A DNA stretch of 38,890 bases, from the sequence record NC_047766.1; one strand, given 5' to 3'. The first letter of the stretch is position 1. Every line of letters starts with the position of its first letter. Below the pieces are notes generated by a model. That model saw only the letters and a program-made list of their open reading frames with translations. It was not told the DNA's origin and searched no databases. The translations under genes and the position numbers were made by a program. This DNA comes from Escherichia phage ECA2. Positions 10,807 through 37,771 of this stretch are shown here, in pieces.

Positions 10807-10855
10807 TCACATTCTGGCCTCTTCTCTCCTAATGCTAATTTACAAAGGAGGTCAC

Positions 10856-12544
10856 ATGGCTACAAATATTAAGACCGTGATGACTTACCCGCTGGATGGC
10901 TCCACTACGGACTTTAATATTCCGTTTGAGTATCTGGCTCGTAAGTTCGTCCGAGTGACCCTTATCGGTGTTGACCGAAAGGAACTCATCTTGAATCAAG
11001 ACTATCGTTTTGCAACTAAGACCACAATCTCAACAACGAGAGCGTTGGGGCCAGCGGACGGTTATAACATGGTTGAAATCCGTCGATTTACCTCCGCTAC
11101 CGATAGGCTGGTTGACTTCACCGATGGTTCAATCCTTCGGGCATACGACCTGAACATCTCTCAGGTTCAAACCCTTCACGTTGCAGAAGAGGCTCGTGAC
11201 TTAACGGCTGATACCATTGGTGTGAACAACGATGGCAACCTTGATGCTCGTGGTCGTCGTATCATAAACGTAGCTGATGGTGTTGACCTCGGTGATGTTA
11301 TCACTTTAGGTCAAGTCACTCGGTGGAATGAGTCTGCCCTGAACTCTAAGAACGCCGCTGCTACCTCTCAGGCCGCTGCCAAGACCTCAGAGACCAACGC
11401 TAAGACCTCAGAGACCAACGCTAAGACCTCAGAGACCAACGCTAAGACCTCAGAGACCAACGCTAAGACCTCAGAGACCAACGCGTACCAATGGGCGCAG
11501 CGTGCAGAGGACTCTCCGGTGCAGGGTAGCGAGTTCTCCTCATATCACTACTCACGCAAATCCGCTAAGAGTGCTGCCGCCGCGAGTGTTTCTGAAGATA
11601 ATGCTAAGGTGTCCGAGAATAACTCGAAGACCTCTGAGACCAACGCTAAGACCTCTGAGACCAACGCTGCGGCCTCTGCTCAGACAGCTAAGGATGAGGC
11701 GGCTAAGCTGACCAACATGAATGACTTTGCTGCCGCTATTGATTCAGTCAACGGTAACAATGTTGTCATGAAGGGTGACTTCACCATTAAAGGAAACGGT
11801 AAAGTATCAATACTGAACCACAGTGGGCTATACCAAGATAAGACCGTGAATGGCGTGAACTATGCCAACAGGATTTATATGGATGATGCAGGGGCCATGC
11901 ACTTCGAGAACTACCGTGTGTCTGGTACTTCATCCACCTTACGTGCTGGTTTTGTTATTACAGATACCAACAGGTTTGACTTTACAGGGCCAACGCAAGT
12001 TAATGGTGATATCATCGCATATGTGAATGCGCCCCCTAATCCAGCTATTGGTCAATACCTCAATTCTGTGGCAGTTCGCTCACAGCTTCGGGGCCGTGGT
12101 GCTGAGAATGATCCACTTGGTGCGTACTGTGGTATGTATATTCAGGAGCACGTTGGTACAGACCACGCGATAATCCTTAACCTCAATGGTTTTAGCAAGG
12201 ATACTAACTGGCAGCTATTCTCCAATGGTAAAATATCTACACCACTTGGTGATGTGATGACTTCAGGTTCTGATGTTAGAATCAAGGATGATATCACTAA
12301 ACCTCTTGATGGTGCTGGTGAGCGTATTGACGCAATTGGCATAGTGGAATACACAGAGATTGCCACCGGGGAACGTAAACGTGGGTGGCTGGCCCAACAG
12401 CTTGACACGATTGACCCGCTGTACACATACCTCACGACCACCGCAGAAGGTAGTCTTTTGAATACCAACGACAGGGCGTTGCTTGCTGACGTAATAACTG
12501 AGCTTCAGGCACTACGTCAACGCGTTAAAGAACTCGAAGGATAA
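10856..12544 (+). CDS. 17: Tail fibre protein (gp17), mosaic: T7-like N-terminus, repeat-rich shaft, distinct distal region, C-terminal S74-type chaperone domain
   Basis: Start ATG 10856 with RBS AAAGGAGGT; N-terminus MATNIKTVMTYPLDGSTTDFNIPFEYLARKF matches recalled T7 gp17; C-terminus has SDVRIKDDI...RKRGWLAQQLD...VKELE. Confidence 0.9.
   Translation: MATNIKTVMTYPLDGSTTDFNIPFEYLARKFVRVTLIGVDRKELILNQDYRFATKTTISTTRALGPADGYNMVEIRRFTSATDRLVDFTDGSILRAYDLNISQVQTLHVAEEARDLTADTIGVNNDGNLDARGRRIINVADGVDLGDVITLGQVTRWNESALNSKNAAATSQAAAKTSETNAKTSETNAKTSETNAKTSETNAKTSETNAYQWAQRAEDSPVQGSEFSSYHYSRKSAKSAAAASVSEDNAKVSENNSKTSETNAKTSETNAAASAQTAKDEAAKLTNMNDFAAAIDSVNGNNVVMKGDFTIKGNGKVSILNHSGLYQDKTVNGVNYANRIYMDDAGAMHFENYRVSGTSSTLRAGFVITDTNRFDFTGPTQVNGDIIAYVNAPPNPAIGQYLNSVAVRSQLRGRGAENDPLGAYCGMYIQEHVGTDHAIILNLNGFSKDTNWQLFSNGKISTPLGDVMTSGSDVRIKDDITKPLDGAGERIDAIGIVEYTEIATGERKRGWLAQQLDTIDPLYTYLTTTAEGSLLNTNDRALLADVITELQALRQRVKELEG
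11378..11482 (+). repeat. Five tandem copies of a 21-bp unit (GCTAAGACCTCAGAGACCAAC) encoding AKTSETN heptads in gene 17
   Basis: Four perfect copies plus one with a single mismatch; diverged copies at about 11600-11665. Confidence 0.95.
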
Positions 12545-13100: not shown

Positions 13101-13147
13101 GTTATTTGGTGCATCTACGTGAAATCTAAAAATTGATGGGAGGTGTT

Positions 13148-13621
13148 ATGCTAAAACTTTTACGCAGCGCACTCCCTTGGGTACTCGCCGGGACACTCTT
13201 TATGGGTGGCTGGCACTTAGGGTCAACCCATGAGAGAGCAAACTGGAAGGAGGTAATCCAAAATGAATACATTGCGAAAACAAAAGCTGATATCCAACAG
13301 CATAATGCAGTACAGACAGCACTCGATGCCATTGCTAAGCGGCACTCCGATGAGATGGCTGAACTTGAGGGGAGCACTGATGGGATTGTTAATGCTCTCA
13401 ATGCTGATAACAAGCGGCTGCGTGTCAAACTCAAAGCTATCAGTGGAACACCCGGCGATAAACAGCAGTGTATCAGCACAGTTGATGGAAAAGCCGAACT
13501 TGACGAAGGAGATGCTAAGCGTCTTATCGGAATAGCTCAGAAGGGTGATAAGTGGATTGAGAACCTACAGGACACTGTGCGAGTTCTCCAAGGTAAACTC
13601 AAAGAGAAGGAGACTAAGTAA
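13148..13621 (+). CDS. 18.5: Rz-like i-spanin (gp18.5)
   Basis: Start ATG 13148 with RBS GGGAGGTG; N-terminal TM segment; matches recalled T7 gp18.5 (LRSALPWVLAG...DNKRLRV). Confidence 0.88.
   Translation: MLKLLRSALPWVLAGTLFMGGWHLGSTHERANWKEVIQNEYIAKTKADIQQHNAVQTALDAIAKRHSDEMAELEGSTDGIVNALNADNKRLRVKLKAISGTPGDKQQCISTVDGKAELDEGDAKRLIGIAQKGDKWIENLQDTVRVLQGKLKEKETK
13263..13535 (+). CDS. 18.7: Rz1-like o-spanin lipoprotein (gp18.7), embedded in 18.5 in the +1 frame
   Basis: Lipobox-like LITSGC; embedded arrangement as in T7 18.5/18.7. Confidence 0.75.
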   Translation: MNTLRKQKLISNSIMQYRQHSMPLLSGTPMRWLNLRGALMGLLMLSMLITSGCVSNSKLSVEHPAINSSVSAQLMEKPNLTKEMLSVLSE

Positions 13622-14046
13622 TGGCTATGGGAAGACCAAGGGCGTCTCAGTTAGAGCGGGAATGTTCGACCTGCGGTCTGACTAAGCCCGTTTCTGAGTT
13701 TCATAAGAATGGCAACCTGCGGGGTGTCCCTCAGTATAAAACAACTTGTAAGCCATGCCGTAAGGCTGCAACCCAACCAGACACCTACAGGAAATATCAC
13801 CTCAAGGCTCGTTACGGTATTACCGTGGATGAGTATGACGCGTTGGAGAAGGCCCAAGGAGGAGTGTGTAAGATTTGTCAGAGGCCAGAGACTCAGCGTA
13901 AGAGACTCGCCGTTGACCACTGCCATACTACTGGTGCTGTTCGTGGCTTACTGTGTACAACCTGCAATGCGGCAATCGGTCATCTATTGGATGACCCAGA
14001 GATTATCCGTAGGGCTGCTGACTACGTAGGAGGAACCCTTGAGTAA
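13621..14046 (+). CDS. HNH endonuclease, endonuclease VII-type (putative homing endonuclease)
   Basis: 141 aa; motif [40 protein letters not shown] typical of the Endonuclease_7 / HNH family; start overlaps 18.5 stop (TAATG) and 3' end overlaps the gene 19 start. Confidence 0.8.
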
Positions 14047-15802
14047 CTCACAAGAGGCCCGCAATGCCTTAATAGTTGCGCAACTTAAAGGAGATTTTGT
14101 CGCTTTCTTATTTGTCCTATGGAAAGCCCTTTCGCTTCCACAACCCACTAAGTGTCAGATTGATATGGCACGGTGTCTGGCTAACGGAGACAACAAGAAG
14201 TTTATCCTACAGGCTTTCCGTGGTATCGGTAAGTCATTCATCACCTGTGCGTTCGTTGTGTGGACGCTGTGGCGTGACCCTCAGTTGAAGATACTGATTG
14301 TCTCTGCATCCAAAGAACGTGCGGACGCTAACTCCATCTTCATCAAGAACATCATTGACCTGCTGCCCTTCTTGGCTGAGCTAAAGCCTCGCCCCGGTCA
14401 GCGTGACTCTGTGATTAGTTTCGATGTTGGCCCTGCCAAGCCTGACCACTCTCCGTCTGTGAAGTCGGTGGGTATCACTGGTCAGTTGACTGGTAGTCGT
14501 GCTGATATCATCATAGCAGATGACGTTGAGATTCCGTCTAACTCCGCAACTCAAGGTGCCCGTGAGAAGCTGTGGACTCTGGTGCAGGAATTTGCTGCGC
14601 TTCTGAAACCGCTGCCGACTTCTCGCGTTATCTACCTTGGCACGCCTCAAACCGAAATGACCTTGTACAAGGAACTCGAAGATAACCGTGGGTACACCAC
14701 AATCATCTGGCCTGCGCTCTATCCGCGTAGCCGTGAGGAAGACTTGTACTATGGCGACCGTCTGGCCCCGATGCTCCGCGAAGAGTTCAACGATGGGTTC
14801 GAGATGCTCCAAGGTCAACCGACTGACCCCGTGCGCTTCGATATGGAAGACCTACGTGAGCGTGAGTTGGAATACGGTAAGGCTGGCTTCACTTTGCAGT
14901 TCATGCTCAACCCGAACCTTAGTGATGCCGAGAAGTACCCCTTACGCCTCCGTGACGCTATCGTGTGCGGTCTTGACTTCGAGAAAGCCCCAATGCATTA
15001 CCAGTGGCTACCGAACCGTCAGAATCGCAATGAAGAGCTTCCTAATGTGGGACTTAAGGGTGATGATATTCATAGCTATCATTCGTGCAGCCAGAACACT
15101 GGACAGTACCAGCAACGCATCCTCGTGATTGACCCAAGTGGTCGTGGTAAAGATGAGACAGGTTACGCAGTGTTGTTCACCCTGAATGGCTACATCTATC
15201 TGATGGAAGCTGGCGGGTTCCGCGATGGTTATTCCGATAAGACCCTTGAGTCCCTCGCTAAGAAAGCGAAGCAGTGGAAGGTTCAGACCGTGGTCTTCGA
15301 GAGCAACTTCGGGGATGGTATGTTTGGTAAGGTATTCAGTCCTGTGCTCCTGAAACACCATGCAGCCGCTATGGAAGAGATTCGCGCTCGTGGTATGAAG
15401 GAACTACGCATTTGTGATACGCTGGAACCTGTGCTCTCTACGCACCGCCTTGTGATTCGTGATGAGGTGATTCGTGAGGACTACCAGACTGCCCGTGACG
15501 CTGATGGCAAGCATGACGTTCGCTATTCGCTGTTCTACCAGTTGACCCGTATGGCCCGTGAGAAGGGCGCTGTGGCACATGACGACCGACTTGATGCGTT
15601 AGCATTGGGTGTGGAGTTCTTACGCTCTACGATGGAACTGGACGCCGTGAAGGTGGAGGCTGAGGTGCTTGAGGCGTTCTTAGAGGAACACATGGAGCAC
15701 CCAATCCATTCGGCTGGTCATGTAGTTACCTCGATGGTTGACGGTATGGAACTCTATTGGGAGGATGACGATGTGAATAGCAACAGGTTCATTGACTGGT
15801 AG
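14039..15802 (+). CDS. 19: Terminase large subunit (gp19), apparent TTG start
   Basis: 587 aa; conserved N-terminus [30 protein letters not shown] begins at TTG 14039; AGGAGG at 14028-14033; in-frame TAG at 14027-14029 closes the frame upstream. Confidence 0.9.
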
Positions 15803-23442: not shown

Positions 23443-23859
23443 ATGAGAAACATCGAACGGTTCAACGCAAAGACTGAACCTTGCGGTGACTGTCTACGTT
23501 GGACTGGTCGAATCCAGCCTAACGGTTACGGACAGTTTCGCCTCGAAGGTAAAACACAATACGCACATCGAGCAGCTTACAAGCTGTTTATCGGTGAACT
23601 GGACAATAAAGATACAGTCCTTCACTCGTGCGACAACAGGTGGTGTGTGAACCCTGAGCATTTGACCAAGGGAACGCAGGCCGATAACCTGAAAGACATG
23701 GCGATAAAGGGTAGACACCACGCCATTAAGATTCCGAACGATGCCATTGAGGGCATCCGCAAAGACCCTCGCTCTTCCACTGTGATAGCGGCTGAGTGGG
23801 GCGTCCACCCAACAACCATCCATAAGATTAAGCGAAATATTAACAGGAGATTCGTATGA
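23443..23859 (+). CDS. HNH homing endonuclease (HNH_3-type) between promoter phi1.3 and the ligase gene
   Basis: 138 aa; motif AHRAAYKLFIGELDNKDTVLHSCDNRWCVNPEHLTKGTQADNLKDM; stop overlaps ligase start (ATGA). Confidence 0.8.
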   Translation: MRNIERFNAKTEPCGDCLRWTGRIQPNGYGQFRLEGKTQYAHRAAYKLFIGELDNKDTVLHSCDNRWCVNPEHLTKGTQADNLKDMAIKGRHHAIKIPNDAIEGIRKDPRSSTVIAAEWGVHPTTIHKIKRNINRRFV

Positions 23860-26187: not shown

Positions 26188-26886
26188 ATGGCTGGTTTCA
26201 AGAAGAAAATCTACACCTCTGGTCTTGGCACTGCTGAGCCGTATGCTTACCTGAGTAAGCCGGATTATGGCAACGAAGAGCGTGGCTTCGGCAACCCTCG
26301 TGGTGTCTATAAGGTAGACCTGACTCTTTCCAATAAAGACCCGCGCTGTCAGGCGATGGTCGATGAAATCGTGAAGACTCACGAAGAGGCTTATGCTGCT
26401 GCCGTGGAAGAGCTCGAGGCTAACCCGCCGCAGGTACAGCGTGGTAAGAAACCGCTGAAACCTTACGAGGGCGACATGCCGTTCTTCGATAACGGTGATG
26501 GTACGACTACCTTCAAGTTCAAATGCTATGCGTCTTTCCAAGACAAGAAGACCAAAGAGACCAAACACATCAATCTGGTCGTGGTCGATAGCAAGGGCAA
26601 GAAGATTCAGGACGTTCCGATTATCGGCGGCGGCTCTAAGCTGAAAGTGAAATACTCTCTGGTGCCTTACAAGTGGAACACCGCTGTGGGCGCAAGCGTC
26701 AAGCTGCAACTGGAATCCGTGATGCTGGTCGAACTGGCTACCTTCGGTGGTGGCGGTGAAGATGAGTGGGCCGATGAAGTCGAAGATGGCGGTTACACTG
26801 CGAGCGAATCCCGTCAGTCCCGCGATGAACAGGAGTGGCAGGAAGACGAGCACGAAGAAACCCCGGATGACGACGAGGACTTCTAA
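26188..26886 (+). CDS. 2.5: Single-stranded DNA-binding protein (gp2.5)
   Basis: 232 aa; acidic C-terminal tail ending DDDEDF; strong match to recalled T7 gp2.5. Confidence 0.96.
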   Translation: MAGFKKKIYTSGLGTAEPYAYLSKPDYGNEERGFGNPRGVYKVDLTLSNKDPRCQAMVDEIVKTHEEAYAAAVEELEANPPQVQRGKKPLKPYEGDMPFFDNGDGTTTFKFKCYASFQDKKTKETKHINLVVVDSKGKKIQDVPIIGGGSKLKVKYSLVPYKWNTAVGASVKLQLESVMLVELATFGGGGEDEWADEVEDGGYTASESRQSRDEQEWQEDEHEETPDDDEDF

Positions 26887-27347
26887 TGGCTGGCGCATAC
26901 GCTGCGCGAGGTGTACGCAAGGTCGGGGCTTTCCGCTCCGGCCTAGAAGATAAAGTCTCAAAGCAGCTTGAGAGTAAGGGTATTAAGTTCGACTATGAAC
27001 TTTGGCGTATCCCTTACGTCATCCCTGCGAGTGACCACTTATACACTCCAGACTTCCTGCTGCCTAATGGTATCTTCATTGAGACCAAAGGGCTGTGGGA
27101 TTCCGATGACCGCAAGAAACACCTTTTGATTCGTGAGCAACATCCTGAACTGGACATTCGCTTGGTCTTCTCAAGCAGCCGCTCAAAGCTCTATAAGGGC
27201 AGCCCAACAAGCTACGGTGAGTGGTGTGAGAAGCATGGCATTCTGTTTGCTGATAAGCTGATTCCTGTGGCGTGGCTCAAAGAACCCAAGAAGGAGGTTC
27301 CGTTCGATAAATTTAAGACTAAGAAAGGAGTAAAGAAAAATGGCTAA
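26886..27347 (+). CDS. 3: Endonuclease I (gp3), Holliday junction resolvase
   Basis: 153 aa; synteny and size. Confidence 0.9.
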   Translation: MAGAYAARGVRKVGAFRSGLEDKVSKQLESKGIKFDYELWRIPYVIPASDHLYTPDFLLPNGIFIETKGLWDSDDRKKHLLIREQHPELDIRLVFSSSRSKLYKGSPTSYGEWCEKHGILFADKLIPVAWLKEPKKEVPFDKFKTKKGVKKNG

Positions 27348-36838: not shown

Positions 36839-37771
36839 ATGGCTGAATCTAATGCAGACGTTTATGCGTCCTTCGGTGTGAACAACGCGGTAATGACCGG
36901 AAGCACACCTACTGAACACGAACAGAATATGCTGAGTCTCGATGTTGCTGCCCGTGATGGCGATGATGCAATCGTACTTAGCGAGGAACCGAGTTCTCAT
37001 AACGATGACCCTTATGCGGCTGGTGAAGACCCATTCGCTAATGAGGAAGACGATGAGGGCCGCATTCAGGTTCGTATCAGTGAAGATGGCAACGAAGCCG
37101 AGTTCGACACTGGTAGCGATAACGCTGAGGTTGAGACCGAAGGTGAAGCCGCTGAGTTTGAGCCGCTGGGTGACACTCCAGAAGAACTGAGCCAAGTGAC
37201 TGAACAATTAGGTCAGCACGAAGAAGGCTTTCAGGCGATGGTCGAGCAGGCCGTTGAGCGTGGACTGAGCGCAGAGTCTGTGACTCGCATCTACGAAGAG
37301 TATGAAGCCGATGGTATCTCTGAGAAATCCTACGCGGAACTCGAAGCTGCTGGCTATAGTCGTGCCTTTGTGGACTCCTACATCTCCGGTCAGGAAGCCC
37401 TTGTAGACCAGTACGTCAATCAGGTAGTTGCCTTTGCTGGTGGTAAGGAGCGCTTTAGCGCAATCCATACGCACCTTGAAGCAACCAACCCGGCTGCGGC
37501 TGAGTCCCTTGAGGCTGCCATGATGAACCGAGACTTGGCGACTATCAAAGCGATTATCAATCTTGCTGGTGAGAGTTACACGAAGAAATTCGGTAAGCCT
37601 GCCAACCGTAGTGTTACCAAGCGTGCTACTCCGGTTAAACCTGTAGCTCGTCAGAAAGAGGGCTTTACGAATCAGGCTGAGATGATTAAAGCTATGAGTG
37701 ACCCGCGTTACCGTAGTGATGCTGCCTACCGTCAAATGGTAGAACAGAAGGTTATCGACTCCAGTTTCTAA
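36839..37771 (+). CDS. 9: Capsid assembly / scaffolding protein (gp9)
   Basis: 310 aa, highly acidic; RBS TAGGAG; synteny. Confidence 0.93.
   Translation: MAESNADVYASFGVNNAVMTGSTPTEHEQNMLSLDVAARDGDDAIVLSEEPSSHNDDPYAAGEDPFANEEDDEGRIQVRISEDGNEAEFDTGSDNAEVETEGEAAEFEPLGDTPEELSQVTEQLGQHEEGFQAMVEQAVERGLSAESVTRIYEEYEADGISEKSYAELEAAGYSRAFVDSYISGQEALVDQYVNQVVAFAGGKERFSAIHTHLEATNPAAAESLEAAMMNRDLATIKAIINLAGESYTKKFGKPANRSVTKRATPVKPVARQKEGFTNQAEMIKAMSDPRYRSDAAYRQMVEQKVIDSSF

Follow-up and report, generated by a model that had tools for sequence, protein, structure and literature searches.

The large terminase gene of Escherichia phage ECA2 very probably starts at a UUG codon within the 3' end of an upstream endonuclease gene

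Introduction

The window analyzed here, the whole 38,890-nt stretch of record NC_047766.1 (Escherichia phage ECA2), is a T3-like podovirus genome (Teetrevirus), and its region downstream of the lysis genes raises a simple question: where does translation of the large terminase begin when an endonuclease ORF stands directly upstream and the conserved 5' end of the terminase frame offers no ATG? Gene 18 (small terminase) is followed here by gene 18.5, a 141-amino-acid Endonuclease_7/HNH-like ORF (here, the HNH gene), and gene 19, and the region is 98-99% identical to that of Klebsiella phage 31, Klebsiella mtp1/4/14, and Serratia phages 2050H2 and Seera. Both UUG and GUG belong to the canonical start codons of E. 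coli. In that host they initiate at 10-100% of the level of AUG (bioRxiv 10.1101/063800). In the literature on non-AUG terminase starts in T7-like phages, we found generic start-codon statistics only and no explicit discussion.

Results

Signals at the 5' end of gene 19

The gene and the elements surrounding its start are the following.

14039..15802, + strand: gene 19, large terminase subunit, 587 amino acids (Pfam Terminase-T7_RNaseH-like and Terminase_6N; end-to-end match to PDB 8DGC_E and 4BIJ)
14027..14029, + strand: TAG closing the terminase frame, four codons 5' of the TTG (from the sequence)
14028..14033, + strand: terminase Shine-Dalgarno (SD) element AGGAGG in HNH codons 136-138, 5 nt before the TTG (from the sequence; kept in the HNH-bearing relatives read)
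14039..14041, + strand: large terminase start codon TTG (sole ATG/GTG/TTG in the open stretch; annotated in relatives)
14039..14046, + strand: 8-nt start/stop overlap TTGAGTAA, from the terminase TTG to the HNH TAA at 14044-14046 (from the sequence)

The product is a T7-type large terminase (gp19), with an N-terminal ATPase domain, a T7-type RNaseH-like domain, and similarity over its full length. Pfam matches included PF22530 (E=6e-40) and PF03237, and residues 1-587 align with residues 1-586 of 8DGC_E, while 4BIJ was matched at E=2.5e-294. For SD-led initiation at a non-AUG codon we looked for an in-frame UUG 4-9 nt 3' of an SD, a frame closed upstream, and no alternative ATG, GTG, or TTG before conserved coding sequence. 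The window has AGGAGG-N5-TTG with AACCC as the spacer and the frame-closing TAG upstream; the next ATG of the frame is codon 43 (14165), and no in-frame ATG, GTG, or TTG lies between. A first-pass annotation of this DNA had placed the TAG, the AGGAGG inside the HNH 3' end, and the TTG at exactly these positions. It had set the next ATG about 41 codons on, and this codon does lie past conserved residues, at a distance of 42 codons.

AGGAGG occurs merely 22 times in 38.9 kb, 19 of them on the + strand, so its presence at optimal spacing is not what chance would give: the motif would fall at an ideal distance from a given codon in roughly 0.3% of cases. A GTCGGCGGC-type sequence is a synonymous alternative to the AGGAGG.

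Evidence that the TTG is used

Codons N9 to D42, 34 codons that all lie 5' of the first ATG, encode a near-invariant protein segment with heavily diverged synonymous sites. Synonymous and nonsynonymous differences over codons 9-42 stood at 23:3 against kpssk3, 17:3 against T7, and 18:3 against Ninurta. These ratios indicated clear purifying selection and thus that codons 9-42 are translated; since no other ATG, GTG, or TTG is able to serve them, the start would be TTG 14039. The same N-terminus is found in solved T7-like terminases (8DGC chain E and 4BIJ).

The SD and the TTG are identical in the six HNH-bearing phage records in which the junction was read (including L001, L002, and L005), and they are conserved in HNH-bearing records over two backbones. 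In one of these phages, Yersinia phage vB_Yep_9, both are kept though the HNH gene is just 91% identical in DNA. This recurrence excludes a sequencing error that turned ATG into TTG, the artifact against which the first-pass annotation had cautioned. TTG is annotated as the terminase start in Klebsiella phage 31 and in vB_Yep_9, and the exact start motif TTGAGTAAC was found in 51 IMG/VR contigs. The earlier proposal of a TTG start led by an SD within the last HNH codons is thus upheld by purifying selection, by the lack of any other candidate codon, and by the conserved SD, and use of UUG 14039 in vivo is probable. GenBank annotations of near-identical genomes already include the feature, which is typical for the T7 group.

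Gene 19 start codons across T7-like phages

Of 80 T7-like terminase loci taken from IMG/VR, 70 gave a good alignment and were scored. The sole usable gene 19 start was TTG in 33, ATG in 24, and GTG in 12, with no candidate in 1, in a census whose redundancy (many near-identical Klebsiella phages) means that counts do not equal independent events. A GGAGG-type SD precedes every TTG or GTG start among the 70. Klebsiella Przondoviruses make up the bulk of the TTG group, and the variants TTG AGT CAA, TTG AGT AAA, and TTG AAT occur in other clades. The junction region of these Przondoviruses is common to about 380 phage records at a coverage of at least 80%.

The native 18.5/19 junction of the Przondoviruses resembles that of the window: a TTG start follows an AGGAGG(T) SD embedded in the 3' end of the preceding ORF, and the first codons, TTG AGT AAC TC, are identical. 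In kpssk3, TUN1, vB_Kp1, and others it reads …GGTAAGGAGGTGAACA TTG AGT AAC TCT…, and these phages lack the HNH gene; the ORF before gene 19 is that of the spanin (gene 18.5), whereas in the window it is the endonuclease gene. Przondovirus gene 18.5 uses one of two stops, a TGA (TTGA) or the TAA within TTGAGTAA, and the latter arrangement is the very 8-nt overlap of the window, present natively between genes 18.5 and 19 of kpssk3, TUN1, L101, L105, L106, L110, and L114. The annotation of TUN1 likewise begins the terminase at the TTG with this overlap. The two junctions differ in the SD spacer, which has 6 nt (TGAACA) in the Przondoviruses and 5 (AACCC) in the window, and in terminase codons 5-13, which in the window are Ningirsuvirus-like.

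T7 itself (NC_001604) has gene 19 annotated from a GTG at 37370 (TAAGGAGGCAAT|GTG TCT ACT). Like the window, it has a non-AUG start after a consensus SD (TAAGGAGG), and both share the conserved N-terminus …RNAL(V/I)VAQLKGDF. It differs from the window in using GTG, not TTG, and in having a short intergenic gap after gene 18.5 in place of an overlap, with no inserted gene. Gene 19 of T7-like phages thus commonly and natively pairs a strong SD with a weak start codon and overlaps the stop of the ORF before it, and since weak starts are normal there, with T7 itself using GTG, the TTG of the window is ordinary.

A recombined segment at the 18.5/19 junction

Four further features describe what lies upstream of the terminase start.

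13133..13621, + strand: gene 18.5, Rz-like i-spanin (Pfam Phage_lysis, relatives' annotations, and the sequence)
13288..14077 (right end approximate), + strand: imported mosaic segment of ~790 nt replacing the T3-type 18.5/19 junction (blastn and codon alignment)
13607..13612, + strand: SD AAGGAG of the ATG-type gene 19 junction, now used by the HNH gene, whose ATG 13621 follows after 8 nt (same context in empty-site Ningirsuviruses)
13621..14046, + strand: free-standing Endo VII-motif (HNH-like, "DHHRN") endonuclease, 141 amino acids, putatively homing (PF02945, E=1e-28; phrog_2633; residues; sporadic distribution)

The exact start of gene 18.5 is uncertain, the equivalents in relatives being 13136 or 13148; its TAA (13619-13621) overlaps the ATG of the HNH gene by 1 nt (TAATG). 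By blastn, the window follows phage KLB4 at 98.5% identity as far as 13287 and returns to it, at 97%, near 14059; in the codon alignment the right crossover falls within GCGCAACT (about 14078-14085). The DNA in between is foreign: a 3' part of gene 18.5, which is Ningirsuvirus-like (90.8% to Ninurta, blastn), is followed by the HNH gene and by terminase codons 1-13. In the nearest backbones without the insert, KLB4 and phiYeO3-12, gene 19 starts at ATG (AAGGAGATGCAGA ATG AGC GAC…, MSDTQANRNAL), with AAGGAG-N7-ATG and a 26-nt overlap with gene 18.5. The T7-type phage vB_Yep_9 gives the complementary picture: it is 91% identical to the window in the HNH gene and 97% in the first 13 terminase codons, versus ~60% in gene 18.5 and 79-83% in the rest of gene 19.

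These comparisons bear on the earlier suggestion that the start codon was remodeled at the insertion. Compared with the T3-type backbone, the start region has indeed been replaced, but the insertion did not make the TTG: AGGAGG(T)-N5/6-TTGAGTAAC and the overlap TTGAGTAA are native to HNH-less Przondoviruses, and T7 has GTG, so that a reading of the codon as a by-product of the inserted gene finds no support. The 3' end of the HNH gene, GTAGGAGGAACCCTTGAGTAAC, is suggestive of homology to the native junctions GTAAGGAGGTGAACATTGAGTAAC and GGAGGTGAAACCTTGAGT, but over so short a stretch, and one so constrained by the SD, common descent 5' of the TTG cannot be proven. In IMG/VR, no HNH-less genome carried the window's exact gene 19 5' end (TTGAGTAACTCNCARGARGCC), and the exact junction motif AGGAGGAANCCTTGAGTAAC had zero matches. 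A lone metagenome match to TTGAGTAACTCNCARGARGCC was dismissed as chance, both terminase and HNH homology being absent from it.

The left side of the insert was equally informative. Empty-site Ningirsuviruses read AAGGAGGCTAAGTAATGTCTAAG, in which the ATG is the start of gene 19, and the counterpart in the window is AAGGAGACTAAGTAATGGCTATGGG, in which it starts the HNH gene. Their junction, AAGGAGGCTAAGTA ATG TCT AAG CAA TCC CAA GAG GCC, has a TAATG overlap, and the HNH ORF of the window begins at the equivalent ATG (AAGGAGACTAAGTA ATG GCT ATG GGA), which indicated that the endonuclease gene took over the ATG-type initiation site of gene 19. The terminase of the window resumes with TTG AGT AAC TCA CAA GAG GCC, and the last six HNH codons (VGGTLE), past the end of the Pfam domain at residue 136, span the native-type TTG junction. 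As read from these alignments, what the insertion changed is that the upstream signals now belong to the HNH ORF, the terminase retaining a native-type TTG start.

The endonuclease is a candidate mobile element

The PF02945 (Endonuclease_7) match covers residues 60-136 of the 141. The residues and the motif position that define the DHHRN group (PMC6083498), namely CX2-4C, D-H-x-H, R, CX2C, and N in the C-terminal half, are all present, as C83KIC, D99H100C101H102, R108, C112TTC, and N116, and the N-terminal part has two CxxC pairs as well. Like the F-CphI/"DHHRN" family (PMC6083498), the protein has a C-terminal motif with conserved CX2C, DHxH, R, CX2C, and N and is encoded by a podovirus with a T7-type resolvase of its own (endonuclease I, 26886-27347 in the window). 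It differs in being free-standing, the F-CphI family being intron associated.

This HNH allele (at least 92% amino acid identity) was found in 8 of 50,697 phage records, or 8 of 930 related ones, always at the 18.5/19 junction, and paralogues with 45-50% identity occupy other slots, e.g., "13.5". A search of IMG/VR with the HNH protein gave distant relatives only (at most 59% identity), in unrelated contexts that are uninformative on the junction. The sporadic distribution, the 91-97% identity against flanks of 60-83% in a backbone of another genus, and the mosaic boundaries at 13287 and about 14078 form the pattern that a mobile cassette would leave when its flank is co-converted, and the gene may thus be mobile by homing.

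Other cargo at the same junction

Hafnia phage Ca (= vB_HpaA_yong1, Kayfunavirus) carries a gene for a 143-amino-acid HNH homing endonuclease between its lysis and large terminase genes, and one lysate yielded both genomes that have the 397-bp element and genomes that lack it (PMC8861465). As in the window, the insert lies at the 18.5/19 junction; gene 18.5 ends in a stop that overlaps the start of the insert (GTGA), and the 3' end of the insert houses the terminase SD and start, with the TAA of the endonuclease gene in terminase codons 2-3 (ATGTCTAA versus TTGAGTAA in the window). The two endonucleases are, however, unrelated (BLAST between the proteins gave no match), and the terminase of Ca starts at ATG. 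The Ningirsuviruses JA10 and pEp_SNUABM_12 have a 205-amino-acid ORF in the same slot, starting at the same TAATGGCTA; behind it, as in the window, comes a portable module that gives gene 19 an SD and a start. There the module is CAATAGGAGGCCACAATG, with an ATG start, in a 15-nt intergenic gap, and the cargo is a different one; CAATAGGAGGCCACAATG recurs in other IMG/VR loci. These data indicated that the 18.5/19 junction is a recurrent insertion hot spot.

Discussion

We hold with high confidence that gene 19 has an ordinary start at UUG 14039 led by an SD, a native T7-like design of this gene, and that its junction rides on a recombined segment of ~790 nt with an endonuclease gene. Ribosomes would initiate at the UUG under the guidance of a full-consensus AGGAGG lying 5 nt upstream, in the last codons of the preceding gene. 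Along with the endonuclease gene, the segment brought in terminase codons 1-13 and a portion of gene 18.5; the endonuclease ORF has taken the TAATG stop/start and the SD that gene 19 uses in empty-site genomes, and its own 3' end supplies the terminase with a native-type TTG junction. Initiation at the UUG is possibly aided by ribosomes that terminate 3 nt downstream, at the HNH stop.

Were the terminase to start instead at its first in-frame ATG (codon 43, 14165), it would be 42 residues shorter and the TTG with its SD a coincidence. ATG is the commonest start codon, and RefSeq has cut the homologous terminase of kpssk3 to an internal GTG (codon 26, 25 residues lost), but that GTG has no SD either, ATG 14165 is preceded by AAGTGTCAGATTGATATG, again without an SD, and the conserved consensus AGGAGG stands 5 nt before the TTG. 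Codons 9-42, moreover, are strongly purified by selection and present in the solved homologues. On the selection upstream and the absent SD we rejected this start, which we regard as extremely improbable. A prfB-like programmed +1 frameshift, which would fuse the HNH protein to the terminase and leave the TTG without a role in initiation, has a negligible probability. The +1 shift of prfB needs CUU-U, an SD-like element at a distance of 3 nt on its 5' side, and an A-site codon that is a stop or is slowly decoded. The HNH frame does read AGGAGG-AACC-CUU-GAG-UAA, and the terminase frame is the +1 frame, open from 14030. The spacer, however, has 4 nt against the critical 3, the shift would be on CUU-G with poor re-pairing from CUU to UUG, and the A-site codon is GAG, neither stop nor rare, which sets the site apart from the prfB type. 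HNH-less relatives share TTGAGTAAC with a different upstream frame and gene, so that the conserved element is the SD with the TTG and not a shift site.

With initiation at UUG 14039 as the preferred reading, there remains the part played by the HNH gene. The first-pass annotation had terminase translation coupled to, or attenuated by, this gene. Coupling is plausible from the arrangement of the junction, where stop and start lie as close as coupling would ask (TTGAGTAA, 8-nt overlap), but any attenuation is due to the UUG codon itself, as in the HNH-less relatives. A strict form, in which terminase translation needs ribosomes terminating at the HNH stop (termination-reinitiation) and HNH expression sets the terminase level, appears doubtful to us. 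In its favor, the HNH stop is only 3 nt past the start codon, native junctions overlap gene 18.5 equally, and weak start codons in general profit from ribosomes delivered locally. Against it, the full-consensus SD, its optimal spacing, and the absence of predicted sequestering mean that de novo 30S binding should be possible. We found no mRNA structure masking the SD and TTG in 13980-14090: the fold had -24.5 kcal/mol versus a shuffle mean of -24.3 (z=-0.06), and with a structure not beyond chance, independent initiation of the terminase is equally possible. It is highly unlikely that the terminase has the HNH protein as a functional partner, with the overlap serving stoichiometric co-expression. 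The two genes are adjacent and overlapping, and HNH-terminase neighbors are discussed in PMC8861465 as a functional pairing in cos phages, HK97 gp74 stimulating terminase cutting. As quoted there, however, the dependence was described for Terminase_1, not for the Terminase_6N and T7 RNaseH-like domains present here; of 930 related records only 8 have the HNH allele, packaging proceeds without it in the closest relatives, its paralogues occupy unrelated positions such as gene "13.5", and the gene bears a mobility signature. Given the wrong terminase family and the sporadic distribution, we do not class it as a gp74-type cofactor.

Why gene 19 should have such a start is a further matter. A weak start and an overlap probably hold an enzyme that is needed in low amounts at a low level tied to upstream translation, a rationale weakened by the ATG starts in 24 of 70 related loci. 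A bolder proposal joins these observations with the other insertions: the junction would be a dedicated landing pad, where cargo captures the gene 19 signal and brings a replacement SD and start, and the TTG start would be part of the self-immunity of the endonuclease element. As a whole we consider this unlikely. Selfish endonucleases and other cargo may repeatedly seize the stop/start-coupled signal, leaving the essential terminase in need of a portable SD and start, and the TTG-type 5' end (TTGAGTAAC-TCA, not ATGTCTAAGCAATCC) may destroy the recognition site of the endonuclease and be co-converted with the element.

The practical value of the finding is annotation quality, and gene callers do mishandle the non-ATG start of gene 19. 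The RefSeq entry of Serratia phage 2050H2 has no large-terminase CDS though the ORF is intact and 587/587 amino acids are identical to the window's, and that of kpssk3 has the truncation described above. Terminase serves as a marker for phage taxonomy, packaging-type prediction, and defense studies, and Avs sensors recognize it; correct N-termini therefore matter.

In biological terms there is little surprise, since a gene 19 with a weak start and a strong SD is standard in the T7 group and homing endonucleases at this junction have been published. The junction is a compact natural case of a selfish gene set between two translationally overlapped essential genes with neither broken. Should the landing-pad proposal be true, the recurrent TTG and GTG starts of gene 19 would reflect both dosage control of the terminase and a history of homing.

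Different cargo genes at the 18.5/19 junction

The slot between gene 18.5 and the large terminase gene (gene 19) was found to hold a cargo unlike the HNH gene of the window in two relatives, and loci L131 to L134 and L136 belong to the same observation.

874-1491 of L006 (Erwinia phage pEp_SNUABM_12), 205-aa hypothetical ORF in the 18.5/19 slot
874-1491 of L010 (Dickeya phage JA10), 205-aa hypothetical ORF in the 18.5/19 slot

The 205-aa ORFs start at the same TAATGGCTA and are followed on the 3′ side by a common portable module, TAACAATAGGAGGCCACAATG, which restarts gene 19. This module also precedes gene 19 in several of the T7-like terminase loci from IMG/VR, with other sequence upstream of it. 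Both cargo types have ATGGCTA at the 5′ end (13621-13629 in the window; 874-882 in L006) and share a G-to-A change in the upstream Shine-Dalgarno (SD) sequence, GGAGACTAAG, where empty sites read GGAGGCTAAG. These shared features hint that one cargo was exchanged for the other at a site that was no longer empty.

In a T7-type IMG/VR locus (L117, IMGVR_UViG_2706795353_000001, about 1410-1500), the gene 18.5 stop lies 86 nt 5′ of the gene 19 GTG, and a short hydrophobic ORF (…LTMIIPKLTVLWYVNNRTPSSLAL*) can be read directly before that GTG. This ORF may represent another small insert at the junction.

Terminase annotation in relatives

Serratia phage 2050H2 (NC_047844.1, 36836-38599) has no large-terminase CDS 3′ of its endonuclease VII gene in either RefSeq or GenBank. 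Its TTG-initiated terminase ORF is unbroken and identical to the window terminase at 587/587 aa, and the call was probably missed owing to the TTG start. For Klebsiella phage kpssk3 (NC_048114.1, 37872 versus 37947), the terminase start given in RefSeq is an internal GTG at codon 26 that lacks an SD, and 25 conserved residues are thereby lost; the TTG passed over has an SD upstream and overlaps the gene 18.5 stop.

Other features of the window

10832-12544, + strand, tail fibre gene
13263-13535, + strand, embedded o-spanin (gene 18.7-like ORF, lipobox-like LITSGC) within gene 18.5
23443-23859, + strand, 138-aa ORF in the DNA-metabolism region, a second putative homing endonuclease (Pfam HNH_3, E=4.5e-9)

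The putative homing endonuclease is unrelated to the HNH gene at the 18.5/19 slot, and its zf-His_Me_endon match is sub-threshold (26.8 bits; cutoff, 27 bits). The tail-fibre protein carries about five perfect TSETNAK heptads in a run, with additional degenerate copies downstream. The run suggests a tandem 21-nt repeat whose copy number could vary.

The left recombination boundary (13287/13288) falls inside the embedded o-spanin ORF. Therefore, both spanin genes are chimeric: their 5′ parts are of T3 type and their 3′ parts of Ningirsuvirus type.
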